Shown here: in pieces, positions 1 to 15,425 of the stretch
Layout: each line of letters starts with the position of its first letter
Position numbering within the stretch: position 1 is the first letter of the stretch
Position numbers and translations under genes: made by a program
Assembly (NCBI GenBank): GCA_963812605.1
Contig: CAWEWF010000005.1
Location: 192,001 to 256,000, forward strand
Source: an uncultured Verrucomicrobiae bacterium
GTDB lineage: Bacteria > Verrucomicrobiota > Verrucomicrobiia > Palsa-1439
Reading direction: 5' to 3'
Length of the DNA stretch: 64,000 nucleotides
Notes under the pieces: generated by a model
Told to the model about the DNA's origin: nothing
What the model saw: only the letters and a program-made list of their open reading frames with translations
Database searches by the model: none

Positions 1-272
1 ACTGCCCGCCGCAGAAATCCCCGTCGCCGATCAAGCGGCAGATCGAGAGCGCCAAGTACGGTCTCGACACAGCCGTGTTTGCCGTCGATCGCTTTTTCAA
101 GAACATTGAGAACCAAGCCGATTTCAGTCTTGATCAAGGCAGCCTGCACCGCACGCGAGAAACTCCTGCGGGAGAGCCGCTGGTCAGTCCACGTGTGAAG
201 CTCGACCTCAACATGGGGGAGGCCGCCAGGCCCTACGTGGGTGTGCGGATCATCATCCCGGTTGGAAAGTGA
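1..272 (+). CDS. Hypothetical protein, 3' part (probably starts before the window)
   Basis: The ORF 75..272 frame is open back to the window start. It ends VRIIIPVGK, resembling a terminal beta-strand. Confidence 0.45.
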   Translation, partial: CPPQKSPSPIKRQIESAKYGLDTAVFAVDRFFKNIENQADFSLDQGSLHRTRETPAGEPLVSPRVKLDLNMGEAARPYVGVRIIIPVGK

Positions 273-519
273 CACGCGGCGAAAGCCCTGCTCGCGCGGC
301 CAACGGGCCTGAACGCCAATCTTTCTGGTAGAGATCAAGTTCCAGCCTGGTTATTCCCGTTTGCGATGGACCAATGGGGTAGGATTATTCCCTATGCGAG
401 ATTTAGATTTTGCCCAATTGTAGGTAACCGACGGACGCACTATGGTGATTGCAAGTTGGAGGGCAGCCGTGAGCAGTGGCTAATTTGTCGGCCGACCTGA
501 CACAAAAGAATTTGGCGAA

Positions 520-843
520 ATGAACATCAAAACCATTGCCCGTTCTGAATTTGACGAATTGGTGCCTGATTACCCGGCCCTGGCGCGGCTGATGGTGGAG
601 CCGGTTGAATGGTTTTCCAATCGGTCGGGCACCCTGGTCGCCGCGATAGCCCGGGGCGATGGCGTGGCGAGTTGGAATTACGCCATCTTGAAACGGGACA
701 AGAAAGGCGATTTCCACGTGCGCAAGGTGATGAACAACCTTTTCAGCCTGAAGGCCGCCAAGGTTGATCTCTTGCTTTCGATGGCGGAGATAGGGATCAG
801 CCAGCCCGATCCGGTGACCTCTTCTATTTTATCCGGATCGTGA
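520..843 (+). CDS. Hypothetical protein (107 aa)
   Basis: ATG-started ORF with globular composition and no recognisable motif. Confidence 0.55.
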   Translation: MNIKTIARSEFDELVPDYPALARLMVEPVEWFSNRSGTLVAAIARGDGVASWNYAILKRDKKGDFHVRKVMNNLFSLKAAKVDLLLSMAEIGISQPDPVTSSILSGS

Positions 844-896
844 TTGGCAGAGGCCACAAAAGCCCGTATTGATCTGGCATTCTAAGGAGCTGCGAG

Positions 897-1166
897 GTGG
901 CATTTGTTACCTTTACCGCTGACGTGGTGGCAAAGAGCAAGGCGGGACCGGTTTTCAAACGCGTTCCCGGAATCATTCTCGAAGGTATTGAGCATCGGTG
1001 CTCCGAAATCGTTTCGGAGATGCGCTGCCCCCGCCATCAGCAAAGTGCCGAAGTCCTGGTTGACGTCGAGAATCCCGACCAACTGGAAATTGAGATCGTC
1101 TGTTGTTGCAATCGATTCGCAACCCGTGTGCGCGAGGCCCTGAACAAATCGCTCGATCAACGCTGA
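897..1166 (+). CDS. Hypothetical protein with Cys/His motifs (CPRH...CCC)
   Basis: GTG start preceded by AAGGAG/GAGG. 89 aa with possible metal-binding residues. Confidence 0.5.
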   Translation: MAFVTFTADVVAKSKAGPVFKRVPGIILEGIEHRCSEIVSEMRCPRHQQSAEVLVDVENPDQLEIEIVCCCNRFATRVREALNKSLDQR

Positions 1167-1208
1167 GTCGAATCACGCACATTTATATCGCAGCAGGGAG
1201 CGTCGACA

Positions 1209-2018
1209 TCACGGCCCTTTGGAGGAATCAACTGCGGGTTTGTTCCCGAACTGAAACAAACTGTTATCAAATGTGAATTGGTAGGCGATGTAACATTGGA
1301 ACTGCGTCGGGCCGTCAATGGACCGGCCAGCGGAGAAAAGCAAGTGATGCTGCTCAGTGAGGTCGATGACCGTGCCGATATTGAACGCGGTGCCGGCGTT
1401 GGGAAAGTCCACTTGCAGGGACGTTTGATGATATACCTCCACGCCGATGAGGACATTGGTCAAGACCTGTTTTTGCAATACGCCGCCCACAAAGCCCCAA
1501 TTTCCTTTGCCAGAAAAGGAATTGATGCCGTAGCCGCCGCCACCGTAAGCCGTCCATGAACCCCAACTCTTTTGCGCCCACACGGGCACGAACGCCTGTA
1601 GATGGCCCGTGCCGAGATTGTCTTTGGCGCTGCCCGAGGGAACTTCCAGCAGCGGGAAAACGCCCACTTGCGGCAGCCATTCGGTCTCCTGAATGAAGCG
1701 GAATTTCGCGCCCAGTTCCGTGTCACCATAACCGTAATGGGCGCTGCCGGCGGAAGGCGCGTCGTACGCCAGCGGCGCAATCAGATGGAGCTGCACGTTG
1801 GAAATGATGCCATAGTTCAGCTCGAAATGCGGCCCGGTACCCGACCAATCGCCGGGGACCTTGGAATCCTGGGAGGCGATATAGAATTCCCAATGTTGGT
1901 AGTCCACGGGTTCGGGGTCGTCGGTGAAGAATGGAGGGCCACCGAAAGTGTTTCCGACGAGGGTTACGCTGAGGATCGCCAGTTGAGCTACAACGGCCAG
2001 GCATCGTGTGGTTCGCAT
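1209..2018 (-). CDS. Outer-membrane beta-barrel 'transporter' family protein (MetA-pathway of phenol degradation-like)
   Basis: Signal peptide, GPPFFTDDPEPV motif, GYGDTELGAKFRF, alternating aromatic beta-strands and YIAYQFTF near the C-terminus. Confidence 0.7.
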   Translation of the reverse strand: MRTTRCLAVVAQLAILSVTLVGNTFGGPPFFTDDPEPVDYQHWEFYIASQDSKVPGDWSGTGPHFELNYGIISNVQLHLIAPLAYDAPSAGSAHYGYGDTELGAKFRFIQETEWLPQVGVFPLLEVPSGSAKDNLGTGHLQAFVPVWAQKSWGSWTAYGGGGYGINSFSGKGNWGFVGGVLQKQVLTNVLIGVEVYHQTSLQVDFPNAGTAFNIGTVIDLTEQHHLLFSAGRSIDGPTQFQCYIAYQFTFDNSLFQFGNKPAVDSSKGP

Positions 2019-2031
2019 GGGGCGTGTTTTG

Positions 2032-2352
2032 TCAGTCGCCGATCAAATAGAACCCGATGATGATCAGCCCGCCCGCCACCACTCCCGCCATGAGTGTTCC
2101 GATCAAGCGGTTGGCGGAGATCTGGATTCCCCGCCCACTGTTGGCCCTGGCGAACAGCCAGCCGAACAGGGCAAACAGGACAAGGACGATGGCACTATGA
2201 GAAACCCAGTGATGGCCGGTGAGTTTTTGCAGTCCCGCCAAGACGGCTGGAATCTTCTCTTTCGCGACGACCAGCAACGCATTGATCACGCTGGCAAGCG
2301 CCGCGGATAGCCCGAAGGAGATTGTATATTTTGAAACGCTGGTGTTTTCCAT
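2032..2352 (-). CDS. Small three-TM membrane protein with GHHWVSH motif
   Basis: Three hydrophobic segments. Co-oriented and closely spaced with its neighbours. Confidence 0.65.
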   Translation of the reverse strand: MENTSVSKYTISFGLSAALASVINALLVVAKEKIPAVLAGLQKLTGHHWVSHSAIVLVLFALFGWLFARANSGRGIQISANRLIGTLMAGVVAGGLIIIGFYLIGD

Positions 2353-2373
2353 GTTCGGTCTTCTTCTCGATTG

Positions 2374-2829
2374 TCACTTCGCCAGCAAGGCCACTTTCAC
2401 TCCCATCGCAATGATTGCGCCTTCGCCTTCCATCATCAAGGCCAGCAGGGCAATCGCGCCGGCCACCCACAGCACCACCCGTCGCGCGTCTTGATTGGCC
2501 GCCAGGTTGTTGGAGGCGGCGATCGGGAGATAGGTGACCAGCAGCAACAGCATGATGACCAAGTGTTCCTTTGTCTCCATGAAGAAACTGTGGGCGAAAG
2601 GCCATGGTCCCTTGAGGATGATGGTTTTATCCACCTTGTAGAAGACGACGTACCAATAGCCGGCAGTACAAAAGGCCAACCACATGAACACCGCGGCGGC
2701 CCGAGACAGGCTCCGGATCCGGGCTTGATTGGTTTCCGAGGCGTGCAGCACATCGACGAAGATCCACACGGTCGTGATGATGCAAGCCATCCCAAACGCC
2801 ACATGCGCCATCAAGATCAGTTCAGTCAT
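2374..2829 (-). CDS. Four-TM membrane protein with His residues (AHVAFG; AHSFFMETKEHL)
   Basis: ORF 2374..2880, likely start MTELILMAH. Four hydrophobic helices. Confidence 0.65.
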   Translation of the reverse strand: MTELILMAHVAFGMACIITTVWIFVDVLHASETNQARIRSLSRAAAVFMWLAFCTAGYWYVVFYKVDKTIILKGPWPFAHSFFMETKEHLVIMLLLLVTYLPIAASNNLAANQDARRVVLWVAGAIALLALMMEGEGAIIAMGVKVALLAK

Positions 2830-2935
2830 AATTCGTTGCCGGGCGAAATAATCTCCGCTCCCGGTCGATTTAGCCATCAAATCTTGCGCATTCGAGCTCC
2901 CGTGAAATGCGGCTAGGGATGCGGACCGGGGCGGG

Positions 2936-3070
2936 AGTCAGAAGCCGGTAGCCAAGTAGCCAGTAGCCAAGGGGCGGAAAGCGGAAAGCGAGAAGGGAGG
3001 AGATGAACGCCGAACGTTCAACTTTCAAAAAGGGAAGGCCAACCGCGAATTTACACGAATGGACGCGGAT
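2936..3070. repeat. Mosaic of short degenerate tandem repeats (GTAGCCA x3, GCGGAAA x2, AACGCCG/AACGTTC/AACTTTC, ~10-mer CGAAT units)
   Basis: Read directly from the intergenic sequence. Confidence 0.55.
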
Positions 3071-3224
3071 GGGGAGGCGCGTCGATGCTGAAATCCGCCC
3101 GTTGCTTGTTAGACTGCCAGCACTTCGGAGGCCCCATGTGAACGCGAGCGATGGAGAGGCGGAAGGGTACCTGTGCCCCTACGGGAGCCTGTGAGGGAGT
3201 CGCCGGCGCAGTGAAGTTGTAATA

Positions 3225-5114
3225 TTATTCTTGGATCTTCGCCTCTAGCAACAGGGGCACGCGATTGGGAAACAGCAGCGACGCGATGGTACAGAGGGCT
3301 ATACCCTCGTTGGAGAATTCTAATGTTTCAGGTCCAAAGCTCTCTGTGATCGCCGCGTCAAATTCCTTCTTAAAATCTGCAACTGTCCATACACCGAATC
3401 CAATCCGGTGTGAGTAGTTCATACCCTCCTCAATCACGCTGCGACCAAATTGTCGATAATCAGATGGAATGAAGAACGTCGATGACTTCCGATCAAGCGA
3501 CCGCAGATCCCACGCATTACCGAAGCCAAGCTTGGCGCCAAACAGTAACAGTACAGGAAGAAGGAGAGATGTATTTACGGGTCGCCAATCCTTCGGCCGG
3601 TGCTCCTTTGGACCCATTGACAGAATGTATTCGAACGCCCAAGCACCATCAACGTCGGCGCGGGTGATATTTCCACGCCGTTCGGCGAAGCTGGCAAAAT
3701 ACATGTTGATAACTCGCTCGGCCATCTCCCTCTTTTGCTTCAAGAGGCAAGCCTTTATGAAAACATATATTGGGGCTGCCTGTTCATCAGACACTGCCAC
3801 AATCGAATCCCCGTACCTTTGAAGGATCTCAGATGCTAGTTCGAAGTGATGTGTATCGGCTGTATGGAGATCGGGAAACAGGGTATTGAGAATTACGGAT
3901 AAACCAATCCATCCCAATGTTTTTGTGATTCGCAAGGGCAAATAAAATAATTCGGCTGACGGGCTCAAACCGCTCATAAGTGCATACTTTCCCGCCTTGA
4001 CGGAACTCAGCAATCCGTCCCAACTGTTTGAGTCCAGTTCTAGCATTTCTTGAAGCGCGCCGCGTGTGTAGTTTCTGACCTGTTCGATGTCGATCACCGG
4101 GAGAAGAGACAGAGTGCAGGCGGCAAGACATTGTGATACCGCGAACAGCTCCGATGATTCGTCCGCTCTAGCACACAATGTGCGACCAAGACCTTGTACA
4201 AAAGAGATCTTGGTCTGTACATCGTCGCCCGCGTCACGAAGTACGCTGTCGAGGAGATCGAGCAAGCGTCGAGGATTTGGGTCATCCTTGATAAGGCGGT
4301 ATTCGTCCCAAAAGAGTGGGGATTGTTTGCGGACTCGCTTACCGAATTCAGACAGCGGGTTGACACTATCGACCGGAAAGCTGTATTCCCCAACGCCAAC
4401 GTCGAAATGTGGATTTCGCGCAAAACGGCCATTGCCGAAGAGATTGAGCCCCCATGAGATCGGTTTTTGTCCCACTCCCTTGGCTGATATTGAACGTGAC
4501 ACAATCGCCCCAACCTCAATCAGGTCTAGGAACGGTTGTTGCGTCTGAACTACTTGCTCGCCGGTTAAGCACTTGATCAAGGCTCTCGTCATAACACTTC
4601 CGTCAGAGCTGTCTCCCGCGAATTGCTCGGATGAGCAGGCACCAAGAAAGGCTACACTCGAAGCTTCGGACGAACCAATAACCTCTGGCTTCAAAAGCTG
4701 GTTCAAGTCGAAAGATGAACCCCCGGCTTGGCAGGCATCAACAATTATATTCACCTGGTTCGGGTGAAATTCGTTGATAAGAGTGAAAAGGGAAGTAATC
4801 GGGAAGGCGGTCGTCGAAAGACGGTCCGGATCGGAATTGCGCGTGCAGAGAAAAAAACTGCCCGCCTTTACTCCGCCGTGGCCCGAAAAGAAAACCGTGA
4901 GGACCCCGACTTCTTCGCCTTGAGGAAACGCTTTATCGAGAGCGCTGATTATGTCTGTTTCGGTTGGCGAAAGAAGAAGCTGCGATGTTTCTGCTACGTA
5001 GTGCGGATTCTGTCCGACGAGGGCACTGTACACGTCTTTCGCATCCTTTTCTGCCCCACGGAGTGCTTTCAGGTGGGTATGTGAGTTACATCCTATAGAG
5101 ATGAGGACGTTCAT
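3225..5114 (-). CDS. Caspase-family (peptidase C14, metacaspase-like) protein with a large, probably helical C-terminal domain
   Basis: N-terminal LISIGCN...LRGAEKDA, catalytic His in FFSGHG and Cys in IVDACQAG, and FLGACSSEQFA. About 390 aa of unassigned C-terminus follows. Confidence 0.85.
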   Translation of the reverse strand: MNVLISIGCNSHTHLKALRGAEKDAKDVYSALVGQNPHYVAETSQLLLSPTETDIISALDKAFPQGEEVGVLTVFFSGHGGVKAGSFFLCTRNSDPDRLSTTAFPITSLFTLINEFHPNQVNIIVDACQAGGSSFDLNQLLKPEVIGSSEASSVAFLGACSSEQFAGDSSDGSVMTRALIKCLTGEQVVQTQQPFLDLIEVGAIVSRSISAKGVGQKPISWGLNLFGNGRFARNPHFDVGVGEYSFPVDSVNPLSEFGKRVRKQSPLFWDEYRLIKDDPNPRRLLDLLDSVLRDAGDDVQTKISFVQGLGRTLCARADESSELFAVSQCLAACTLSLLPVIDIEQVRNYTRGALQEMLELDSNSWDGLLSSVKAGKYALMSGLSPSAELFYLPLRITKTLGWIGLSVILNTLFPDLHTADTHHFELASEILQRYGDSIVAVSDEQAAPIYVFIKACLLKQKREMAERVINMYFASFAERRGNITRADVDGAWAFEYILSMGPKEHRPKDWRPVNTSLLLPVLLLFGAKLGFGNAWDLRSLDRKSSTFFIPSDYRQFGRSVIEEGMNYSHRIGFGVWTVADFKKEFDAAITESFGPETLEFSNEGIALCTIASLLFPNRVPLLLEAKIQE

Positions 5115-5746
5115 ACTAACTGGTCGTATCGCGCCATGCGCTTCTCTTCCCGCTGCAACGCTTCTCTCTCCTTCAGTTCCTGAGCTTGCCTGATTGTTTC
5201 CTGAAACTCTGGCCCTCGCTCGGCGATCTCCCGCTGAAGCTGCTCTTGGTAGCCTTCGCCGAAGAGATAGATATTTGGTGTGGACACTTTCCCATCAGAC
5301 CCAACACTTACATCGCTCTTACGAACCATCTCCAAGAATGCATCTGCGAGGGAACCACCCTGCGGCACCGGAACTGTCATCCCAATCTTGGTTGTTTCTT
5401 CGAGAATCTGGTCAACTAATTGTTGTTCAAACGCGCCAGCTGTTTTGTGGATGAAGTCGGAAATTAATGTCAGATCGTTTGCGAGTACGCGACTGAATTC
5501 AATTCGGCAATCCACACTGCGATGCTCAACCGTGCCAACACAGCGGCTGAATTCATCCATCTGATGTCTTTGGAAGACCCACTTCCTTCCATGATACAGC
5601 GTTTCTTTGTTCTCTCGAGCAACGTGCCTTTCTATTCGAGTGTCTAGTTCTCTGATCAACAAGAGGACGAGTTGGCGCTCGAATTCACGCGACTCCTTCT
5701 CTGCCGCAAAAGGCAACTTTTTGGTTGGAGGCTGTTCGTTATTCAC
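5111..5746 (-). CDS. Hypothetical protein translationally coupled to the caspase; possible truncated HK97-capsid-like fold
   Basis: 211-aa ORF whose stop overlaps the caspase start (ATGA). Same AT-richer composition as the caspase. The fold call is inference only. Confidence 0.7.
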   Translation of the reverse strand: MNNEQPPTKKLPFAAEKESREFERQLVLLLIRELDTRIERHVARENKETLYHGRKWVFQRHQMDEFSRCVGTVEHRSVDCRIEFSRVLANDLTLISDFIHKTAGAFEQQLVDQILEETTKIGMTVPVPQGGSLADAFLEMVRKSDVSVGSDGKVSTPNIYLFGEGYQEQLQREIAERGPEFQETIRQAQELKEREALQREEKRMARYDQLV

Positions 5747-5823
5747 GGTGGTGCTAATTTAGGCGAAGACAGCGGAAAAACAACACCGAGGACAGGGTGG
5801 GGGGCTCTCCCGGTGATTATGGC

Positions 5824-6063
5824 TCAAGCTATCTGCTTGGTGGAAAAATTGTAGCCGACGGCTTCGAGGAGTTGTTCGATTTCTTCGATGGCTACCTTGG
5901 GGCTGAAGGAGAAGGCGATGAATTCTTTGCCTTCGGCGACGGAAATGGCTTCGTCCGCCTTGATTCCCTCGCCGCGGAGTTCGGAGCGGAACTGGTTGGC
6001 TTCGATGCTCAGAATCGAGGTGGTAAAGCTGCGATCTTGTTTTTGTAGGACAGTGGCTTTCAT
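5824..6063 (-). CDS. Hypothetical protein (79 aa)
   Basis: Likely start MKATVLQ preceded by GAGAAAAAG. Host-like codon usage. Confidence 0.55.
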   Translation of the reverse strand: MKATVLQKQDRSFTTSILSIEANQFRSELRGEGIKADEAISVAEGKEFIAFSFSPKVAIEEIEQLLEAVGYNFSTKQIA

Positions 6064-6197
6064 TCTTTTTCTCGTTTCCCCGCGTTTTAGTTCCGACGGT
6101 TTGTGGCGTCCGTGCACCGTTCAACCCTGTCGGCTGGAATAGCAACTTTCCTTTAAGGGCATTTACCGTGCCGGTAACGGGGAAGGCGGCAACGACT

Positions 6198-6358
6198 GAG
6201 ATCCTTCGACAAGCTCAGGATGACAACCGAAGGAAAGGGAAAGACGGCAACCGGGACGGTCGCCCTACAATTCGGAGGCGGCGCGGTCGGGCTCCGAAAG
6301 CGTTCGGGGTAAAAGACCGGCGCCGAACAGGATCCACAGGCAGGGACGCCTGTGCCAC
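6198..6358. repeat. Cluster of different REP-like palindromes
   Basis: GAGATCCTTCGACAAGCTCAGGATGACA (6198-6225), rc GTAGGGCGACCGTCCCGGTTGCCGT (6244-6268), hairpin CTCCGAA-AGCG-TTCGGGG (6292-6309) and rc GTGGCACAGGCGTCCCTGCCTGTG (6335-6358). Confidence 0.6.
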
Positions 6359-6381
6359 CATAAAGAAACGGCGCGGGCGGA

Positions 6382-7587
6382 CTATTCGCTCAGTTTCAGG
6401 GATTCGACGCCGATTATGTTGGGGTTGCCATCTTTGATGGCGGTGAGGAGTTTTTCGCTGGGTTCGGCGTTGAGCTGGATGCGGCAGCAGGCGGCGGCAG
6501 CGCCTTCGAAGATGATGTTTTGGACTTCCTCGATGTTGGTGTTGGCGCGGCGGATCTGGTCCATGACATGGGCGAGGACGCCGACGCGGTCGTAATGGCG
6601 GACGACGAGCTGCCATTTGGCGGGGGTACGGGTGGCGAGGTTGACGCAGTTGGGAACGGCCCCCGTCTTGACGTAGGTTTCGATGATGCGGATGGCTTCC
6701 TCGGCGATGGCTTCCTGGGCCTGTTCGGTGGACGCGCCGATGTGGTGCGTGCCGTAGAGATTCGGCTGGTCGAGGATCGGGTCGGCGAATTCGCCCGCGG
6801 TTTCGGCGGGTTCAGGATCGAAGACATCGAGGCCCGCGCGGATTTTCTTCGCGGCGAGCGCGGCGGCGAGGGCAGATTGATCGATGACTTCGCCGCGAGC
6901 GGTATTGATGAGGATCGCATTGGGTTTCATCAGGGCAATGCGCCTGGCGTTGACGAGTTTTTTGGTTTCGGGTTTCAACGCGACGTGCAAGCTGATGATG
7001 TCGGCGCGGCGGAAAAGCGTGTCGAGGTCGGGACAGTACTCGACTTCGAGGTCGCGGGCCCTTTGGAGGTTGAGGGAACGCGACCAGGCGATGACATGAA
7101 GGCCGAAGGCGTGGGCGCGCGTAATGACCTCGCGGCCGACCTGGCCGACGCCGATGATGCCGAGTGTTTTGCCAAAGACGCCGTCGGCTTTGCTGAATTC
7201 CTTCTTGTTCCATTGATGAGCGCGAAGCGCGGTGACGTTCTCGGCGAGACGGCGGTCGAGGCCGAGCAGGAGCGCGAAGACCAACTCGGCGACCGCGACG
7301 GAGTTTTTGCCGGGGCAATTGCTCACATAGACGCCGCGGGCGCTGGCGGCCTTGACGTCGATGGTATTCACGCCCGCGCCGGCGCGGACGATGACGGCGA
7401 GTTGGTCGCCGGCCTTGATCGTCTCGGCGGAGACTTCTTTGCTGCGGACAACGAGGACCTGGTAGGGGGCGATGAGTTTGGGGAGTTCCCCGGCTTTGAC
7501 GGCGGGCTTGTAGGCGACCTCGCAGCCGAGCTTCTTGAGTTGGTCGAGATGTTTCTCGGAGAACTTGTCGGCGATCAGAATTTTCAT
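6382..7587 (-). CDS. serA: D-3-phosphoglycerate dehydrogenase with C-terminal ACT domain
   Basis: MKILIADK start, RAGAGVNTIDV, GIIGVGQVG Rossmann motif, INTARG, HIGAST and ACT domain HYDRVGVLA. Confidence 0.85.
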   Translation of the reverse strand: MKILIADKFSEKHLDQLKKLGCEVAYKPAVKAGELPKLIAPYQVLVVRSKEVSAETIKAGDQLAVIVRAGAGVNTIDVKAASARGVYVSNCPGKNSVAVAELVFALLLGLDRRLAENVTALRAHQWNKKEFSKADGVFGKTLGIIGVGQVGREVITRAHAFGLHVIAWSRSLNLQRARDLEVEYCPDLDTLFRRADIISLHVALKPETKKLVNARRIALMKPNAILINTARGEVIDQSALAAALAAKKIRAGLDVFDPEPAETAGEFADPILDQPNLYGTHHIGASTEQAQEAIAEEAIRIIETYVKTGAVPNCVNLATRTPAKWQLVVRHYDRVGVLAHVMDQIRRANTNIEEVQNIIFEGAAAACCRIQLNAEPSEKLLTAIKDGNPNIIGVESLKLSE

Positions 7588-7756
7588 GTTGATCTCCCGC
7601 AGGCGAAGGAATGCTGTGGGCGAAGGATAGAGCAGGGCGGCGGCCATTGGCAAGCGCGGTTGCGCCAGCATTACAAGCGCGCAACGGATTGTGTCATAAT
7701 CCGCAATCGTACGCTTGCAATGGCAGTCGCGAACCGGTACATTGCGCGGCTTGGAG

Positions 7757-8185
7757 ATGAGCCCCGCAGCCTCAGGAGAAGAAGCGAAATCGGCGTCCAC
7801 CGGCAAGAAGTTACGCGTGCTGGTGGTCGACGACCAGCCGGCGGTGTGCGAGGTGGTGGCCGACAGCATTCAATACGCGGGGCACGAAATTGTCGGCACT
7901 GCCAAGGACGGCATGGAAGCCGTGACGCGGGCCAAGGAATTGCAGCCCGACCTGGTGGTGATGGACATTTCGATGCCGCGGATGAACGGCGTGGAGGCGA
8001 TGAAGGCGATCCTGGCGGCGGGATCGGCGAAGAAGGTGTTACTGATGTCGGGCGAATACCGGTCGCTGGGCGTGACGCGCGACGAGATGATGCGGCATGG
8101 GGCGTCGGGTTTCATGGAGAAACCGTTCAACGTGACGGAGTTATTTGATATGCTGGACCGCTGGGCAGCCGAGGTGTACCGATGA
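7757..8185 (+). CDS. Single-domain response regulator (CheY-like receiver)
   Basis: VLVVDD, DLVVMDISMPRMNG and KPF motifs. Start preceded by GGAG. Confidence 0.9.
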   Translation: MSPAASGEEAKSASTGKKLRVLVVDDQPAVCEVVADSIQYAGHEIVGTAKDGMEAVTRAKELQPDLVVMDISMPRMNGVEAMKAILAAGSAKKVLLMSGEYRSLGVTRDEMMRHGASGFMEKPFNVTELFDMLDRWAAEVYR

Positions 8186-8472
8186 ACAACCTGAGCGAGA
8201 AGAATTTCCAGGCAATCGTCAAGTATGGGCCGATTGCCCTGGGGCTGTGCCTGCTCCTCAACATCTGGGCCGTGATGCGTTACCGCGAAGTTTATCGGGA
8301 TGCCATCAAGTCCGAAGTCAAGCTCCAGCAATTGGCGACGGGGGAACAAATCGCGCAAGCCGTGGTGCAGGAATTCGCCGCGCGCGCCAATAGCGATTCG
8401 CACATTGCCGAGATTTTCCGGCAGGCGCAAGCCCAGGAACAACGAGATCAATTATCCGCACCCACACGATGA
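8182..8472 (+). CDS. Small single-TM hypothetical protein
   Basis: ATGA overlap with the regulator. N-terminal TM helix followed by a helical region. Confidence 0.65.
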   Translation: MNNLSEKNFQAIVKYGPIALGLCLLLNIWAVMRYREVYRDAIKSEVKLQQLATGEQIAQAVVQEFAARANSDSHIAEIFRQAQAQEQRDQLSAPTR

Positions 8473-8811
8473 GCGCACCGGAAGAAACCCCGAACGAAAT
8501 GCAGGCGGAGCAGCCGATGGATGTGGCCGCGGCGGTCGGGGAGTTGCGCCTGCTGGTGTGCGGACTCGGCGGGGCGCTGATCCTGATGAGCCTGGTATTG
8601 AGCGCTTTCGTGCTCAAGCAGACGCGGGACATCGGTGCGGCGACCAACAATCGGCAGCATCAAATCGCGCAATTGCAGACCACGCAAAGGCCGACCATGA
8701 ACTTATTGAAGGACCTGGCGACGTACAGCATGGGCAAACCCGAGTTGACCGCCCTGTTCACCAAGCATGGCCTTCAGTTTGGGCCTCCCGGCGGCGCGGC
8801 CGCAACATTAG
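8469..8811 (+). CDS. Small single-TM hypothetical protein (end approximate)
   Basis: ATGA overlap and a TM helix then a helical region. The computed ORF runs on antisense through rnc. An out-of-frame TAG at 8809-8811 is the likely real stop after a 1-nt error. Confidence 0.55.
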
Positions 8812-9530
8812 CTCGATCCCGGGGTCGTCCTGGGTTGGGGAAGAACGGCCGGCAGCGCCGCCAGGGCCGTTTCGGCCGCGATGGTTTCCGCCTGTTTCTT
8901 GCTGGCGCCGTGGCCGCGCCCGATCTCGCGTCCTTCCCACTCGACAATCGCCTCGAAGTACTTGCTGTGGTCCGGTCCCGATTCGTGGATGACCCGGTAG
9001 ATGGGGCCGCTGGGAGAGTGGGCCTGGAGCAACTCTTGCAAACGGCCTTTGGGATTCTGGCGGGGCGTGGTTTGCTTGATGTTCGAAAACTCCTCGGCGA
9101 ACTGGGCGAGGATGAACTTGCGCGCGGCGCGGCCGCCGCCGTCGAGGTAAACGGCGCCCAACAATGCCTCGAAGGCGTCGGCAAGATTGGAGAGCCGCTC
9201 GCGGCCGCCGCTGCCTTCCTCGCCCTTGCCGAGCATCAGGTATTTGCCCAGGTCGATGGCCTGGGCGCGGTGGAAAAGGGTGTGGCGGTTGGCCAGGTGG
9301 GCACGAATCTGCGTGAGTTTGCCCTCGGGGTGCTCGGGATAAAGCTTGTAGATGCGATCGGTGAGGATGAGTTGGAGCACGGCGTCGCCGAGAAACTCCA
9401 GGCGTTGATTGTGGTGATTGCTCTCCGTGCCGCGCTCGTGCGCAATGGACGGATGAGTGAGGGCCTCAACGAGGAGATCGTGGTTTTTGAATTCGTAGTC
9501 GATGGTTCGCTGCAGTTTTTGAAATTGCAT
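8808..9530 (-). CDS. rnc: Ribonuclease III
   Basis: ALTHPS, signature NQRLEFLGDAVL, ADAFEALLGAVYLDGG and dsRBD NPKGRLQE...GHGASKKQAE. Confidence 0.96.
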   Translation of the reverse strand: MQFQKLQRTIDYEFKNHDLLVEALTHPSIAHERGTESNHHNQRLEFLGDAVLQLILTDRIYKLYPEHPEGKLTQIRAHLANRHTLFHRAQAIDLGKYLMLGKGEEGSGGRERLSNLADAFEALLGAVYLDGGGRAARKFILAQFAEEFSNIKQTTPRQNPKGRLQELLQAHSPSGPIYRVIHESGPDHSKYFEAIVEWEGREIGRGHGASKKQAETIAAETALAALPAVLPQPRTTPGSS

Positions 9531-9660
9531 GATGGCCGTGTCGCCTTCGCCTGCAGGGGGATGTTGACGCCCTGAAACACGTCAGGGCGCAAAATCCAAC
9601 TGCGATGCGGACCAGTCTACTGAAGGCCGTCCGAAAAATCGAGTTGAATTTCGCGGGTGG

Positions 9661-10557
9661 TTACCGACGCCCCGAGCGCGGGTGGAAACGATAATGGGTT
9701 TCCTTGACGCGGCGCTGATCGACGTGCGTGTAGATCTGGGTCGTCGAAATGTCCGCGTGACCGAGCATTTCCTGGATGACACGCAAGTCCGCACCATTGT
9801 CAAGCAGATGGGTGGCGAAACTGTGGCGTAATGTGTGCGGCGTGATGGTTTTGGTGATACCGGCGGCGCGGGTGTATTTTTTGATGAGCACCCAGATAGT
9901 CTTGCGACTGAGCGCCTGGCCGCGCGTCGAGAGGAAGACTTCGCCAAGGCTCGCGGCCTTCGGAAAGGAACTGCGGGCCTCGCGCAGATAGCGCTGCACC
10001 CATTCAATGGCCTGTTTGCCGACCGGGACGATGCGTTCTTTCTGGCCCTTGCCGACCGCGCGGAGGAAGCCGGCCTCGAAATTGATGTCGCTGAGTTTAA
10101 TGTTGGCGACCTCGCTCACGCGCAAGCCCGTGGCATACATGAATTCCAGCAGCGCTTTGTCGCGCAGGCCGAACTTTGTGTGCGTGTTGGGCGCAGCCAG
10201 CAGTCGCCCGACTTCTTCGTAATCGAGCATGTGTGGGAGCGTCCGCCAGAGTTTCGGTGAATCGATGGTCTGCGTGACATCCGTTGCCAGCAGTTTTTCG
10301 CGGGACAGAAATCGGCAGAACATGCGAATCGCGGCAAGGTGGCGCGCGAGGCTGCGCGGGCTCAACCCGGTTTTGCGGCGGTGCAGGAGGTAGTCGGCGA
10401 TATGCTGTCGTTCGGCGGCGTTGAGCTGGCGGACCCCGCGTTGCTGGAGGAAGCTGGTGAATTGAGCGAGATCGGTCCGATAGGCGAGGCGGGTGTTGGC
10501 AGCCAAACCCCGTTCGACAGTCAGATGATCGAGAAAAGCATCGATCAATTGCTCCAC
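9661..10557 (-). CDS. xerD: Site-specific tyrosine recombinase XerD
   Basis: ERGLAANT..AY, YATGLRVSE, GKGQKERIVP, HTLRHSFATHLL, LGHADISTTQIYTHV and terminal HPRS. Confidence 0.93.
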   Translation of the reverse strand: MEQLIDAFLDHLTVERGLAANTRLAYRTDLAQFTSFLQQRGVRQLNAAERQHIADYLLHRRKTGLSPRSLARHLAAIRMFCRFLSREKLLATDVTQTIDSPKLWRTLPHMLDYEEVGRLLAAPNTHTKFGLRDKALLEFMYATGLRVSEVANIKLSDINFEAGFLRAVGKGQKERIVPVGKQAIEWVQRYLREARSSFPKAASLGEVFLSTRGQALSRKTIWVLIKKYTRAAGITKTITPHTLRHSFATHLLDNGADLRVIQEMLGHADISTTQIYTHVDQRRVKETHYRFHPRSGRR

Positions 10558-10669
10558 GACGCGACCTCCTTGGTTGGCGGAGACTATAATTAGTCCTCTA
10601 AGATTGGGGAAGCTTGTTTATCAGGGAAACGAGCCAGGATGAAAAGCGGACAAAAAAACTCTTCTTTTC

Positions 10670-10687
10670 TGTTTGACATACCAAACA
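10670..10687 (+). promoter_or_regulatory. Palindromic operator overlapping a TTGACA -35 box, putative DtxR/MntR box
   Basis: TGTTTG-ACATAC-CAAACA with TTGACA at 10673-10678, 24 nt before the ATG of the DtxR-family gene. Confidence 0.6.
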
Positions 10688-10710
10688 ATTGGCTTATATC
10701 ACTATCAGAG

Positions 10711-11241
10711 ATGGAAACTTGGAAGGAATTCGAGGCGAACGAGCTAACGCACAGCGCGGCGCATCATCTCCTGGCAATCTACGAGGTCGGCTTGGAGTAC
10801 GGCGGTTGGGCGCGCGTGTCGGACATCGCCCGCGAGCTCAGTATTACGCGCGGCAGCGTATCGATCAACCTGCGGGCCCTAAAGAAACGCGGTTGGGTTG
10901 AGACCGACGAGCATCACATGGTGAAGCTCTCGCCGAAGGGGCAAAAAGCTGCCCAAGCCGTGATGGCGAAGAAGGCCGTCGTGAAGACGTTTTTATCCAG
11001 CGTCCTGAATGTCCCCGAATTGCAGGCGGAAATCGACAGTTGCAAAGTCGAGCATCTCATCAGCCAGCCCACCGGGGAACAGCTCGTGCATTTTATGAGA
11101 TTTCTGGTTTCAGAAGATCCGCTCGCCAAGCAGGTGTTGGCGCGATTCAAGAATTTTCACGATCAGTGTCCGGAGAGCAAGACCTGCGAAGTTTGCCACG
11201 GACACTGCCTGATTGAGGAATTGCAACACGCCGGGCTATGA
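10711..11241 (+). CDS. DtxR/MntR-family metal-dependent transcriptional regulator with Cys-rich C-terminus
   Basis: LTHSAAHHLLAI, ARVSDIARELSITRGSVS HTH, AEIDSCKVEHLIS dimerisation/metal motif and tail CPESKTCEVCHGHC. Confidence 0.88.
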   Translation: METWKEFEANELTHSAAHHLLAIYEVGLEYGGWARVSDIARELSITRGSVSINLRALKKRGWVETDEHHMVKLSPKGQKAAQAVMAKKAVVKTFLSSVLNVPELQAEIDSCKVEHLISQPTGEQLVHFMRFLVSEDPLAKQVLARFKNFHDQCPESKTCEVCHGHCLIEELQHAGL

Positions 11242-11657
11242 AGACTGATCGCACGGAAATCGTTGAAGACTTGAATCGTTTGATGGCTGAGGAACTGGAA
11301 GCGTTCCTCCGCTACTTCCAGATGCGCTACCGCCTGCGCGGCGTGGATCGGCTGGCGGCCGACAAACTTTTCGAGGAGGGTACGCGTGAAACGCTCGAGC
11401 ACGCCGAGGCGATTGCCAAACAGATACGCGCGCTCGGCCACATTCCGGCACTCAAGATCGAATTGGAATTGCGGGGCGGCTCGACCAATTTGCAGGAAGC
11501 GCTGGCGGAGATGCTGGAAGTCGAGCGTCAGGCGCTGGACGCGTACAAAGAGGTTCTGCCACGCGTGACGGGTGACACGATGCTCGAGGATTTCATTCGC
11601 AAGCAAATCAGCGTGGAAACGGAACACGTGCAGGAGATCGCGACGTTATTGGAGTAA
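11238..11657 (+). CDS. Ferritin-like (bacterioferritin/Dps-type diiron) protein
   Basis: LNRLMAEELEA, ETLEHAE, EVERQALDAY and ETEHVQE give a four-helix diiron pattern. Confidence 0.82.
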   Translation: MKTDRTEIVEDLNRLMAEELEAFLRYFQMRYRLRGVDRLAADKLFEEGTRETLEHAEAIAKQIRALGHIPALKIELELRGGSTNLQEALAEMLEVERQALDAYKEVLPRVTGDTMLEDFIRKQISVETEHVQEIATLLE

Positions 11658-11700
11658 GAAGCTTGAGGGTCGCAACCCTCGTTAGACGGGAAACGTAATT

Positions 11701-12789
11701 ATGCATGAGGCAGTCATTTCGTCGCAGCCGGTGGCGGCTTTGGGAACCAAGCCGAGGGCCATGCGCCTGGCGTTTCGGGTCATGCTGTTGGTTGCCGTGT
11801 CCCTCGTGGTCGGCATACTGGTATGGCAGGGCATTACCGCCCACGGCAACCCGGATCCGACGAGTCCCCACACCAGCTCCACCGTGGCGCTTCTGGACAT
11901 TGGCGTGCTCGTGTTCCGCGAAGGGCTCGAATGCATATTGGTGCTCGCAGCGATTACCGCGGGGATGGTCGGGAGCAGCCGGCCACACCGGCGCCCGGTT
12001 GCCTGGGGGGCGGGAATCGGTTTCGTGGCGACGATCGCTACGTGGTTCATCGCGGTGGGAATTGTCAACGATTTGACCGCGAATGTTTCCGCGCTCAATC
12101 TCCAGGCGGCCACCGGTTTGCTGGCCGTCGTGGTTCTGCTGGCAGTCATGAATTGGTTTTTCCACAAGCTTTACTGGGGCGGCTGGATCTCCATGCACAA
12201 CCGCAAGAAAGCGGAACTGCTCCGGAGCGCGGGCGACGCGGAAATATCCGATATGCGACTCCTGCGCGGGTTGTGCCTGTTGGGGTTCGCTTCCTTCTAT
12301 CGCGAAGGGTTCGAGGTGGTGCTCTTTCTGCAAAGCTATTACCTGCGGTTGGGAGGGCGAGTCGTCCTCGAAGGCGCCCTGCTGGGGCTGCTTTTCTCTG
12401 GCATCGTCGCGGTTCTCACGTTTGTGGCGCACCATCGTTTGCCCTATCGAAGAATGTTGGTCTTGACCGGAATTATGCTCGGGTTTGTGCTGCTGGTCAT
12501 GGTCGGTGAACAGGTGCAGGAGATGCAGCTTGCCCACTGGATTACCACGACGCCGATTCAACCGTTGGTGAACGTCATCCCGGCCTGGATGGGTGTATGG
12601 TTCTCGATCTTCCCCACAGCGGAAACGCTCGGTTCCCAATTACTGGCTGCGATCCTGGTCATTGGTTGTTACTTCGCGCCCCGATTTCGACCAGCCAGGC
12701 TGCGCCAGAACGGAGAACCGGCTTTTCAGGATCTTCCCGCGCCGCTGGTGGACGTGACCGAAACGCAGCCCGTTCAATCCGCGAAGTAG
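11701..12789 (+). CDS. FTR1/EfeU-family iron permease
   Basis: Two REGxE motifs (FREGLE, YREGFE) and multiple TM helices. Confidence 0.9.
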   Translation: MHEAVISSQPVAALGTKPRAMRLAFRVMLLVAVSLVVGILVWQGITAHGNPDPTSPHTSSTVALLDIGVLVFREGLECILVLAAITAGMVGSSRPHRRPVAWGAGIGFVATIATWFIAVGIVNDLTANVSALNLQAATGLLAVVVLLAVMNWFFHKLYWGGWISMHNRKKAELLRSAGDAEISDMRLLRGLCLLGFASFYREGFEVVLFLQSYYLRLGGRVVLEGALLGLLFSGIVAVLTFVAHHRLPYRRMLVLTGIMLGFVLLVMVGEQVQEMQLAHWITTTPIQPLVNVIPAWMGVWFSIFPTAETLGSQLLAAILVIGCYFAPRFRPARLRQNGEPAFQDLPAPLVDVTETQPVQSAK

Positions 12790-13352
12790 AGCACGAGACG
12801 CTTGGGGCCGTGCGCGCCCATGACCAGGATCTTCTCGATGTCCGCCGTGCGGCTTGGCCCCGTGATGACCGACAACGCGCTCGGCCAATGCTTGTCGTAA
12901 CGTTTACGCAACAAGGCCATCGCGGTCACGAGATCGGGAATAATCTGTTCGCGGCGGGCAATCACCAGATGCGTCGGTGGCAACACCGATAAAGCCCGTC
13001 CACCGGCGGAAACCGTGGAGACGATCACCGAGCCTGTCTGCGCCACGAGACAATCGCAACGGGTCACCCCCAAATCGCACTCCCGCTCACTGGCGTTGGC
13101 CGCCCCGACTGCTTTGCCGACCAAATCGCTCCCGTCGGTTGCGATTTTTACAAAGCCCTTCAAGAACCCGACCAAGATTTCACGGCTTTTGATGAGCTCA
13201 CCCTTCAAGGCCGCAAACTCCTCGCGGAACCACGCCTCGGGATTCGTGACGGGTGGAAAGATCGGCGCGTTCGTTGGCGGAAGGGGTTGATGCGCTGGAA
13301 CGCGCAACGCGGCGCGGACACGCTCGAGAATATTGTCACGCGCGACGTCCAT
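12774..13352 (-). CDS. lutC: Lactate utilisation protein C (LUD domain, YkgG)
   Basis: LVAQTGSV, RALSVLPPTHL and ITGPSRTADIEKILVMGAHGP. Confidence 0.88.
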   Translation of the reverse strand: MDVARDNILERVRAALRVPAHQPLPPTNAPIFPPVTNPEAWFREEFAALKGELIKSREILVGFLKGFVKIATDGSDLVGKAVGAANASERECDLGVTRCDCLVAQTGSVIVSTVSAGGRALSVLPPTHLVIARREQIIPDLVTAMALLRKRYDKHWPSALSVITGPSRTADIEKILVMGAHGPKRLVLYFAD

Positions 13353-14730: not shown

Positions 14731-15425
14731 GTCGCTGCCAGCACTTCCGCGAGCGAGATCGTCTTGATTGGCAGATTCTGGCGGCGCAGGTAGCCGTCGA
14801 TTTGCATGAGGCAACTCGAGTCGCTGGAGACGACGTATTGCGCGCCGGTTTTCCGGATCGAGGCAACCTTCACCTCGTCCATGGCGTAGGAAATCATCGG
14901 GAATTTCACGGAGAAAGTGCCGCCGAACCCGCAACACGTCTCCGCCTGGTCCATCTCGACCAGTTCGACGCCCTTTACGTTGCGCAAAAGCTGGCGGGGC
15001 TCATCCTTAAGGCGAAGTTCGCGCAACGCGTGGCAGGCGTCATGGTAGGTGACCCGCGCGGGGAACTTCGCGCCAACATCCGTCACGCCGAGCTTCTTCA
15101 CAAGGAATTCCGCGAACTCGTAAGTGTGCTTCGTCGTCTGGGTTGCCTTGCCCAGGAGTTCGGGGTAGAAGTTGCGCACCATCGCCGTGCACGAGGCGGA
15201 CGGGCTGACGATGGTGTCGGCCTCGGCGAAGATCTCGCAGTAGCGTGCGGCCAGGGTACGAGCTTCGTCCCAATACCCGGTATTGAAAGCGGGTTGTCCG
15301 CAGCAGGTTTGCTCTTCCGGGTAATAAACGTCCACATTCAGCCGGCGCAACACCGTGACCATCGCGACGCCTACGTTCGGAAAGAGTTGGTCGATAAAGC
15401 AGGGGATAAATAGCGCGACGCGCAT
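14727..15425 (-). CDS. lutA: Lactate utilisation protein A (CCG-domain Fe-S protein, YkgE)
   Basis: MRVALFIPCFID, QTCCGQP, YHDACH and CCGFGGTF. Confidence 0.9.
   Translation of the reverse strand: MRVALFIPCFIDQLFPNVGVAMVTVLRRLNVDVYYPEEQTCCGQPAFNTGYWDEARTLAARYCEIFAEADTIVSPSASCTAMVRNFYPELLGKATQTTKHTYEFAEFLVKKLGVTDVGAKFPARVTYHDACHALRELRLKDEPRQLLRNVKGVELVEMDQAETCCGFGGTFSVKFPMISYAMDEVKVASIRKTGAQYVVSSDSSCLMQIDGYLRRQNLPIKTISLAEVLAAT

Follow-up and report, generated by a model that had tools for sequence, protein, structure and literature searches.

A caspase-family protease and its small upstream partner in an uncultured Verrucomicrobiae bacterium: probably an undescribed bacterial defence module

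What is the role of a two-gene unit in which a caspase-family protease follows a small protein of no named family? The question is raised by a locus in an uncultured Verrucomicrobiae bacterium, for which a 64,000-nucleotide stretch of DNA (contig CAWEWF010000005.1, positions 192,001 to 256,000; hereafter the window) had been read as carrying a candidate anti-phage system. The upstream gene is referred to here as g1, the downstream gene as the caspase and the C-terminal part of its product as the CTD. The features under discussion, in window positions, are as follows.

5111-5746, minus strand: g1, the upstream gene of the pair, 211 aa, GTG start
3225-5114, minus strand: the caspase, the downstream gene of the pair, 629 aa
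5111-5114, minus strand: ATGA stop/start overlap, reading ...gta TGA / ATG aac..., end of g1 and start of the caspase
5222-5509, minus strand: g1 residues 80-175, weakly and collinearly aligned to Phage_capsid_4-type major capsid proteins
4410-5114, minus strand: Peptidase C14 catalytic domain, caspase residues 1-235, PF00656 match
4878-4880 and 4731-4733, minus strand: codons of His79 and Cys128, respectively, the catalytic dyad (codons checked)
3225-4409, minus strand: CTD, caspase residues 236-629 and the stop codon, conserved, without a family match

Both open reading frames were recovered at these coordinates, the peptides quoted for g1 in the original prediction are present in its translation, and the ATGA overlap was confirmed on the minus-strand sequence, implying that the two genes would be translationally coupled. 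The pair is also AT-richer than its surroundings, as had been claimed, with a GC content of 0.504 compared with 0.585 in the flanks (1-3224 plus 5747-12000) and 0.576 in the whole window. The description of the neighbouring intergenic DNA as repeat-rich was not borne out: only a short-period tandem repeat of about 50 bp was found at 2939-2990, and the repeat pairs across 2800-6500 are of chance size (14-21 nt). Searches for tRNAs (1-15000) and Rfam families (1-12000) gave no match. Judged by eye from their translations, the flanks look like core genes (SerA-like, RNase III-like and XerD-like), and the sole defence-like neighbour in the window is a 107-aa reading frame with a weak match to PD-T7-1 (E 2.5e-7). 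The small reading frame at 5824-6063 on the minus strand has neither a relative in the PDB nor a second copy in the genome. A search for sequencing runs listed no RNA run and only DNA runs of small share from one soil study.

The assignment of the downstream protein to the caspase family is well supported, as PF00656 (Peptidase_C14) matches residues 7-188 with 44 bits against a cut-off of 21.4 (E 2.8e-11) and metacaspase chains are the best hits of a profile search of the PDB (E 6.7e-5). The predicted dyad is intact, and none of 23 homologues, some of only 28% identity, departs from His79 (in G-H) or Cys128 (in D-A-C). The EACC1-associated caspase family (NCBIfam NF047832) was considered and set aside as a relative only, at 69.8 bits against a cut-off of 140. 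The only PADLOC match is to the bare 'caspase' model PDLC02987, over profile positions 1-130 of 453. The C-terminus of about 390 aa (residues ~236-629) is, as first described, without a family in Pfam, NCBIfam or PADLOC. When it was used alone as a query, the CTD was present in all 39 relatives found, and 27 of these are 620-647 aa long, which leaves room for a caspase domain too; Asticcacaulis and environmental Pseudomonas are among the bacteria that carry such relatives. Two motifs of the CTD are invariant, Y-L-P-x-R-I..L-G-W-x-G (389-404) and P616-x-R618-x-P620, and the only likeness seen for residues 243-380 is to designed helical repeats (E 0.027). The CTD is predicted to be a regulatory or partner-binding domain.

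The g1 protein belongs to a large yet unnamed family. Its 211-aa frame with a GTG start is backed by homologues of similar length (205-231 aa), the alignment of which begins at residue 1; the public gene call (P0001) is shorter at 149 aa. Besides 25 close homologues, a profile search (E<=1e-3) recovered 775 cluster representatives at 50% identity, and nearly all of the 150 representatives listed are 200-220 aa long. Residues H52, G152, A196 and R203 are invariant across 132 family members, and the conserved C-terminal segment that follows the capsid-aligned part appears helical by eye. No match to g1 was found in Pfam, NCBIfam, PADLOC or PHROGs, even at E<=10 for Pfam and E<=1 for PADLOC models; sequence and profile searches of the PDB with close and broad g1 alignments returned nothing relevant, and none of the 36 proteins reached with the broad alignment carries a Pfam domain.

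The co-occurrence of the two genes, on which the original prediction depended, is a fixed pairing. Of 22 related loci, 19 have the caspase N-terminus directly behind g1, corresponding to about 12 of 14 sequences when loci with identical identity values are counted once, and the remaining three are degraded by deletions that take out the protease domain. Two independent deletions, in L007/L008 and in L019, retain all or part of g1, which points to a cost of the effector. The same 4-base overlap is found in all nine caspase-type loci with listed reading frames (the window, L001, L002, L003, L009, L011, L015, L084 and L085, the caspase ATG of L003 being positioned from the alignment). Percent identities of g1 and the caspase to those of the window drop in step (46/62, 46/60, 40/54 and 43/56), and two distant pairs at 22-29% identity, on a Sulfitobacter pontiacus plasmid and in MT835554.1, keep the same overlap and lengths, with caspases 28-29% identical to that of the window over the full length. 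MT835554.1 is labelled a phage; as it has one integrase and no TerL_ATPase or Phage_capsid match, it was taken as an integrative element. The pair was identified in Verrucomicrobiota, Alphaproteobacteria, Pseudomonas and Chlorobi, and a nuclease-linked form in Actinomycetota. Its occurrence is patchy: 401 genomes were sampled across the phylum and strong matches turned up in 2 of them, and 72,556 plasmid records likewise yielded 2; a second genome search across the same phylum, centred on G401, made no addition.

The genes that flank the pair differ in every locus, without a conserved third gene, and many point to defence or mobility. Proximity to defence genes had been proposed as a check, and restriction-modification, Wadjet or Gabija genes lie in the flanks of 5 of 10 distinct loci, a raw count that makes the enrichment qualitative only; in the other 5 no recognised defence gene is close by. 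A XhoI restriction-modification system is directly upstream of the pair in L001 and Type IIG restriction-modification in L009 and L011, JetA/B/C-like (Wadjet-like) genes are downstream in L008 and L011, and a GajA/GajB-type (Gabija-like) pair is found about 2.4 kb away in L084. Known systems thus stand within a few kb of the pair in independent loci, as expected of defence islands. A TrwC relaxase and integrases are also among the neighbours, as is, by eye, a coupling-protein-sized gene in L008.

The caspase is not the only effector found behind relatives of g1. In one genome (G166), the gene upstream of a protein, P0224, encodes a relative of g1 that matches the family profile at E 4e-20. P0224 is labelled a restriction endonuclease on the basis of 32% identity between its N-terminus and an annotated plasmid gene; the C-terminal 360 aa of P0224 align to the caspase CTD (P 0.0088, 327 columns). 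Its N-terminus has no match to Mrr_cat (PF04471) and contains, by eye, what we take to be a PD-(D/E)xK motif. On a Rhodococcus plasmid, a 195-aa member of the g1 family (hhalign 98.4%, E 6.6e-15) overlaps the start of this annotated endonuclease gene, and the C-terminal part of the endonuclease does not resemble the caspase CTD (P 0.3). As g1 relatives precede a restriction-endonuclease-like protein in these two loci, which constitute the evidence for an effector swap, g1 appears to be the constant part and, judged from sequence, pairs with effectors of no fewer than two types, the caspase and a restriction-endonuclease-like protein, a point absent from the original prediction. That prediction had left g1 as either a sensor or the substrate of the protease; the existence of two effector types favours a sensor or regulator role over that of a protease substrate only.

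Since the mobile g1-caspase unit adjoins known anti-phage systems, the two genes probably form an undescribed bacterial defence module, and we lean towards reading them as a mobile two-gene abortive-infection or defence unit with g1 as sensor or inhibitor. In line with the initial failure to name the pair, g1 matches no named system, the caspase only the bare model of PADLOC 2.0, and nothing named was found in Pfam, NCBIfam or PHROGs; literature searches turned up no description of the pair, which supplementary system lists of defence-discovery papers might already include. In the scheme that follows we infer that g1 binds the CTD, which way regulation runs, what the trigger and the substrates are, and that g1 may descend from a capsid protein. 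The caspase would be the executioner: its N-terminal part is a cysteine protease of the caspase/metacaspase type (His79/Cys128), followed by a CTD of about 390 aa that is largely helical and may hold the protease inactive until a trigger arrives. Overlap with the upstream gene would allow g1 to be produced in a fixed ratio to the caspase, and g1 would be the constant sensor or inhibitor subunit that binds the effector, probably via the CTD. A phage-derived cue might then alter or abolish this binding, and the released protease would cut cellular or phage proteins, so that infection is stopped.

It is tempting to consider where g1 itself came from, as it had been noted to resemble the order of elements in HK97-fold capsid proteins. 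A phage major capsid protein may be its source, g1 perhaps being an exapted Phage_capsid_4/Mu-type capsid fragment with the strand, the spine-helix and the start of the A-domain, in which case the likely cue would be a component of capsid assembly. Of the claimed likeness, what stands are three concordant weak signals, none of which is significant alone. Capsid clusters were the only named protein-language-model neighbours of two g1 family members that share 23% identity, with scores of 0.81-0.83 in the 'lead only' range. Phage_capsid_4 (PF25209) was the most-matched Pfam family, hit by 6 of 132 members (best E 0.0073, all below the curated cut-off, 27 bits where seen), and no other of 120 families was matched by more than three. 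The member P0105 aligns over residues 76-174, equivalent to residues 80-175 of the window's g1, to PF25209 positions 82-174 of 262 (E 0.083), and hhalign places g1 columns 97-191 (residues ~84-175) collinearly on capsid columns 118-224. For Phage_capsid_4-type sequences, 91-95 collinear columns were obtained at P 0.071 (9 sequences) and P 0.037 (89 sequences), and for the gpT type P was 0.28-0.42; reversed controls gave P 0.19-0.67, and the positive control, gpT against capsid_4, reached 98% probability. Compared with Phage_capsid_4/Mu gpT-type proteins, g1 is about 100 residues shorter, is without the C-terminal third, and its genes sit away from phage morphogenesis genes. Major capsid proteins with a complete HK97 fold typically have at least 260 aa; g1, with 211 aa and an aligned part confined to the PF25209 segment given above, is unable to form one.

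We see an even chance that g1 is unrelated to capsids, the likeness arising from the common strand-helix-strand-helix pattern and the protein representing a new effector-regulating fold. The hhalign P values of 0.037-0.28 are consistent with this, as are the 'lead only' language-model scores, the Pfam matches that all fall below the curated cut-off and the empty PDB sequence searches. When sequences from viral contigs (80 + 80 loci) were added to the capsid alignments, hhalign moved no further than P 0.037 for capsid_4 and the gpT signal disappeared, 103 Mu-gpT-type sequences giving nothing above the reversed-sequence control. The window's g1 has no curated-threshold match to Phage_capsid_4, Mu-like_gpT or Phage_capsid, the close g1 family query found no relatives among 71 pattern matches in viral contigs, and local HMMs of the capsid sets against the g1 family gave noise. 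Noisy or non-specific tests also fit a chance likeness: a test of whether the g1 profile ranks capsid above other reading frames (P 0.027) was discounted because the decoy set still held capsid genes, and comparing forward scores with reversed or shuffled ones was uninformative, as the unrelated HicB model came out as positive (P 0.008) as capsids. Against chance, however, PF25209 is where three different methods converge, g1 residues ~80-175 fall on one and the same part of the capsid protein in two of these methods, both language-model queries had capsid clusters as sole named neighbours, and PF25209 stands apart in the Pfam tally. A further elaboration, which we regard as rather doubtful, is that g1 is a host-domesticated capsid fragment serving as bait. 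The capsid-assembly machinery of a phage would capture it, either because g1 co-assembles with capsid subunits or scaffold or because the prohead protease cleaves it, and this would release a pre-bound executioner; most lineages would use a caspase for this, others a restriction-endonuclease-like nuclease.

Two other functions deserve consideration irrespective of the ancestry of g1. The first, which we consider unlikely here, is a classical type II-like toxin-antitoxin addiction system: g1, as a labile antitoxin, would keep a caspase or nuclease toxin in check and so stabilise the mobile element that carries the pair, and phages would not be sensed by any dedicated means. The small upstream gene with a 4-base overlap to a larger effector gene, the carriage on plasmids and integrative elements, the retention of g1 where the effector domain is lost and the exchange of effectors behind a constant partner would all be expected from such a system, and one source labels a family member 'predicted HicB family RNase H-like nuclease'. 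That label does not hold for g1, as PF15919 matches two other places in the genome but not g1, and hhalign against 15 HicB sequences gave a score of 11.7 (P 0.45). Moreover, no DNA-binding or antitoxin family is present in the top 25 of the 132-member Pfam tally, the conserved extra domain of 390 aa is unusual for a simple toxin, and defence systems are direct neighbours, although toxin-antitoxin and defence roles are mutually compatible. Far less probable is a non-defence pair with a housekeeping or developmental role, in which the caspase matures or turns over g1, and g1 forms a structural product such as a capsid-like or encapsulin-like assembly. The weak capsid-family signals, the fixed stoichiometry suggested by translational coupling and the invariant Arg203 near the g1 C-terminus, a possible cleavage site for an Arg/Lys-specific enzyme of the metacaspase type, agree with processing. 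On the other hand, g1 lacks roughly the last third of the capsid fold (PF25209 82-174 of 262 covered), the occurrence is sporadic (2 of 401 genomes), the flanks vary by locus and are often defence or mobile genes, a nuclease takes the place of the caspase in two loci, and no cargo or assembly genes are conserved nearby.

For the preferred reading as a defence module, one of the closest known arrangements is a TIR-partnered two-gene defence unit with a caspase-like effector, described as having a C-terminal domain thought to receive the activating signal (bioRxiv 10.1101/2024.10.24.620036). The likeness to that unit as outlined there lies in the two genes and the caspase-like protease effector. 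However, the C-terminal domains differ, since the match to the PADLOC 'caspase' model is confined to profile positions 1-130 of 453, and nothing in the g1-caspase pair points to a nucleotide signal. Type IV Thoeris has a TIR partner gene, whereas g1 has no TIR match in Pfam or PADLOC. Gasdermin-protease systems likewise use a caspase-family protease as a defence component (bioRxiv 10.1101/2024.10.24.620036), but the g1-caspase pair has no adjacent gasdermin, no PADLOC match to g1 (E<=1) and no conserved third gene. Type II toxin-antitoxin systems are similar in their overlapping small upstream gene, their mobile carriage and an effector that decays first; in contrast, g1 has no recognisable antitoxin or DNA-binding domain, and its 629-aa effector has a large conserved extra domain.

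[quoted passage not shown] The g1 family has many members but no name, and it stays constant while the effectors behind it change; it therefore merits definition and a place in defence-finder tools even without a link to capsids. The Lit protein is a protease activated by a peptide of the T4 capsid (Gol). Capsid sensing in abortive infection has also been described for CapRel SJ46 (PMC9712102). No sequence relation of the g1-caspase pair to either was found; both are single proteins that sense the phage capsid protein directly, neither being known to contain a capsid-like host protein, and if g1 is capsid-derived, the shared expected trigger would be a capsid or assembly protein. Should g1 prove to be a capsid-derived bait, it would offer a testable route to the trigger and would represent a bacterial 'integrated decoy' made from a viral structural protein and spread across many phyla, so that the reuse of viral structural proteins as sensors in bacteria would parallel the integrated decoys of plant NLRs.

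The g1 and caspase genes most likely constitute a two-gene defence module that is so far undescribed and has the caspase as its effector. They are arranged as follows:

5111-5746, minus strand: g1, a 211-aa ORF with a GTG start
3225-5114, minus strand: caspase gene, a 629-aa ORF directly after g1, encoding the long protein

Both ORFs of the translationally coupled pair proposed in the original prediction are present, as is the ATGA at 5111-5114 that is common to the g1 stop and the start of the second gene. The unit is indeed AT-richer, with a GC content of 0.504 versus 0.585 in the surrounding 12 kb and 0.576 in the whole window. The description of the intergenic DNA as repeat-rich was not confirmed, as only one short-period repeat of about 50 bp was found (2939-2990), other repeat pairs being chance-sized; this tandem repeat (units of 7, 8 and 15 bases), located in the intergenic stretch that follows the caspase gene, was probably the source of that remark. 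The neighbours of the pair appear core-gene-like from their translations, judged by eye, with the exception of a 107-aa ORF at 520-843 (plus strand), 2.4 kb from the pair. This ORF weakly matches positions 1-90 of 452 of the PADLOC PD-T7-1 model (E 2.5e-7, 27.8 bits) and could represent part of a defence gene. A 79-aa ORF (5824-6063, minus strand) precedes g1 on the same strand and is separated from it by 77 bases; neither a PDB relative nor a second copy in the window's genome was found for it, and inspection of the ORF lists of the other loci revealed no counterpart upstream of g1. No tRNA was found in positions 1-15000 of the window, and no Rfam family matched in positions 1-12000.

The pairing of the two genes is maintained in both close and distant relatives. 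Among 22 loci fetched with the close-family g1 alignment (3 genomes, 19 metagenomes), a caspase N-terminus begins directly after g1 in 19; to judge by identical identity values, some sequences are present more than once, from separate assemblies, and about 12 of 14 distinct sequences are paired. The three others are degraded copies. Two of them (L007 and L008) have kept g1 and lost the caspase except for a 120-aa remnant frame, whereas in L019 (1422-2561) a deletion fuses g1 residue 142 to caspase residue 396; these independent events both remove the catalytic domain. The L008 frame (10645-11007) fuses caspase residues about 1-20 to a stretch, DGNDSLRFS, resembling about 420-428 of the consensus, beyond which it ceases to match the caspase. 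At longer range, tblastn with a g1 family member 26% identical to that of the window located pairs in a Sulfitobacter pontiacus plasmid and in record MT835554.1, each with a 205-206-aa gene, a 4-base overlap and a 636-637-aa gene that can be aligned end to end with the window's caspase (28-29% identity). The 4-base overlap was present in all nine caspase-type loci with listed ORFs. Record MT835554.1 is labelled as a phage and one integrase was matched in it, with no terminase or Phage_capsid match. The Sulfitobacter plasmid (CP144550.1) gave two tblastn places each for g1-type and caspase-type queries, and may therefore carry a second copy or a paralogous pair.

For the long protein, Pfam Peptidase_C14 matches residues 7-188 (44 bits, cut-off 21.4) and the PADLOC caspase model is matched over positions 1-130 of 453, while the NCBIfam EACC1-associated caspase model remained below its cut-off (69.8 vs 140 bits). 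A search scored on residues 235-629 alone, the C-terminal domain, found 39 proteins, of which 27 are 620-647 aa long and 21 have a precomputed caspase Pfam match; they are named either 'caspase family protein' or 'hypothetical' and include proteins of Prosthecochloris marina, Asticcacaulis machinosus and Pseudomonas sp. PDM04. The predicted intact His/Cys dyad is borne out by an alignment of 23 of these relatives (identity down to 28%), in which His79 and Cys128 are invariant, together with several C-terminal motifs, among them Y-L-P-x-R-I..L-G-W-x-G at 389-404 and P616-x-R618-x-P620. In a PDB profile search, metacaspase matches were confined to residues 5-81, and residues 243-380 resembled designed helical repeats alone (E 0.027). 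Given the invariant motifs, the helical-repeat likeness and the lack of other names among the relatives, the C-terminal domain is conserved, belongs to no described family and is probably largely helical.

For the short protein, Pfam, PADLOC, NCBIfam and PHROGs gave no match. An initial search retrieved 25 homologues (205-231 aa) whose alignments start at residue 1, which favours the GTG start rather than the shorter public gene call of 149 aa. The profile built from these homologues, searched against 1.84 billion cluster representatives, retrieved 775 at E<=1e-3, 336 at <=1e-10 and 141 at <=1e-30, and almost every one of the 150 listed has a length of 200-220 aa. H52, G152, A196 and R203 do not vary across 132 diverse full-length members, and N46, G53, W56, G122, P157, K192 and E200 are nearly invariant. 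On these profile matches, g1 defines a large unnamed family.

Strong matches to the g1 profile were confined to two of 401 sampled genomes from the window's phylum, with three weak partial ones besides. In the second of the two genomes (G166), a g1 relative of 197 aa is encoded directly before a non-caspase protein of 558 aa, P0224. Its residues 17-137 share 32% identity with a Rhodococcus qingshengii plasmid gene that is annotated as 'restriction endonuclease', and its residues 184-543 are collinear with the caspase C-terminal domain (hhalign P 0.0088, 327 columns), the alignment including Y-P-Y-R-I-T...G and F-P-H-R motifs. On the Rhodococcus plasmid, the endonuclease gene is preceded and overlapped by the gene of a 195-aa hypothetical protein that clearly belongs to the g1 family (hhalign 98.4%, E 6.6e-15); the C-terminal part of this endonuclease has no similarity to the caspase domain. 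From these two loci, g1 relatives are seen as the constant part before at least two effector types. By its annotations, the Rhodococcus locus (L109, NZ_CP096567.1, 1-10366) is defence-island-like, with an ATP-dependent endonuclease, an exonuclease domain protein, a DEAD/DEAH helicase and a 143-aa AAA ATPase, possibly a fragment. One fetched locus (CAYUGC010000072.1) is titled 'uncultured Bifidobacteriaceae bacterium'; as phylum-wide searches centred on its genome and on that of the window returned the same G166 locus, its bin is apparently assigned to the window's phylum, and the record may be mistitled.

The flanks of the pair vary from locus to locus in every locus. Among 123 flanking ORFs from 10 distinct loci, called by a simple greedy rule that admits some spurious frames, PADLOC matches include Type IIG R-M (two ORFs), JetC, GajA and GajB, and Pfam matches include DUF3375 (JetA), DUF4194 (two), XhoI, MmeI domains (two), a TrwC relaxase and integrases (two). 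By locus, the defence genes are:

L001: XhoI endonuclease and methylase, directly upstream of the pair
L009, L011: Type IIG enzyme, its gene running up to the start of g1
L008, L011: Wadjet-like genes, downstream
L084: UvrD-like gene beside a 549-aa gene, at a distance of about 2.4 kb, which fits the GajB and GajA matches

By raw count, known defence genes (R-M, Wadjet-like or Gabija-like) adjoin the pair in 5 of 10 distinct loci, in agreement with the proposed defence neighbourhood.

The original prediction also held that g1 resembles an HK97-type capsid protein, for which three concordant signals were obtained, none significant in any single test. The only named clusters among protein-language-model neighbours of g1 were capsid families (PF10124, PF25209, PF05065; 0.81-0.82), and a member 23% identical to it had Phage_capsid_4 (PF25209) as its only two named clusters (0.82-0.83); scores of 0.81-0.83 are leads only by the method's own rating. 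In a Pfam scan of the 132 members at E<=1, six had a match to Phage_capsid_4 (best E 0.0073), and of the 120 families each of the rest was matched by at most three, with residues 76-174 of member P0105, equivalent to g1 residues 80-175, aligning to profile positions 82-174 of 262. With capsid alignments built from prophages of the window's phylum and viral contigs, hhalign placed g1 columns 97-191 on capsid_4-type columns 118-224 (P 0.071 with 9 sequences, 0.037 with 89); Mu-gpT-type alignments gave P 0.28, and 0.42 after enlarging, reversed controls 0.19-0.67 and HicB 0.45, and the positive control, capsid_4 against gpT, reached 98% probability. Pfam and hhalign, the two alignable methods, concur on which parts of g1 and capsid correspond, the latter being what we take to be the spine helix with the strand that precedes it, followed by the first helix-strand-helix of the A-domain. 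Roughly the final third of a capsid protein has no counterpart in g1. g1 may descend from a phage capsid protein, and the chances of such an ancestry appear roughly balanced. A rank test of the g1 profile and a forward-versus-reversed score test were uninformative, with capsid genes among the decoys and HicB equally positive. In genomes of the window's phylum (L024-L031, L050), frames of 628-713 aa with a Phage_capsid_4 match in the last ~300 residues resemble prophage genes in which head-maturation and capsid parts are joined.

Overall, the original observation was confirmed and its interpretation partly supported, the defence reading by the fixed pairing and the defence neighbours, the capsid part by weak concordant signals. 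Taken together, the data agree with an abortive-infection or defence role of the pair, since a swappable catalytic head (caspase or nuclease) on a large conserved tail is combined with a constant small partner, and since the pair is sporadic on mobile DNA beside defence systems and decays head first. The main rival is a plain addiction module, which is compatible with the defence reading. That the small gene precedes the effector gene, and that g1 can persist on its own, points to a harmless g1 and a costly effector. Under the defence reading, the long protein would be an executioner and g1, produced in step with it, would bind its tail and restrain or activate the head upon a phage cue. If g1 is capsid-derived, the likely cue is a capsid-assembly component. 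The invariant Arg203, within the conserved C-terminal segment of g1, might serve for docking or cleavage by a metacaspase-type enzyme with Arg/Lys specificity.

A full-text literature search, which might miss pairs listed in supplementary tables, found no description of the g1-caspase pair. Known systems named in bioRxiv 10.1101/2024.10.24.620036 include gasdermin systems and CRISPR-, Avs- and CBASS-linked caspase-like proteases, which have no g1-like partner as far as searched. In Type IV Thoeris, the partner of the caspase is a TIR protein, whereas here this place is taken by g1, which is not a TIR protein.
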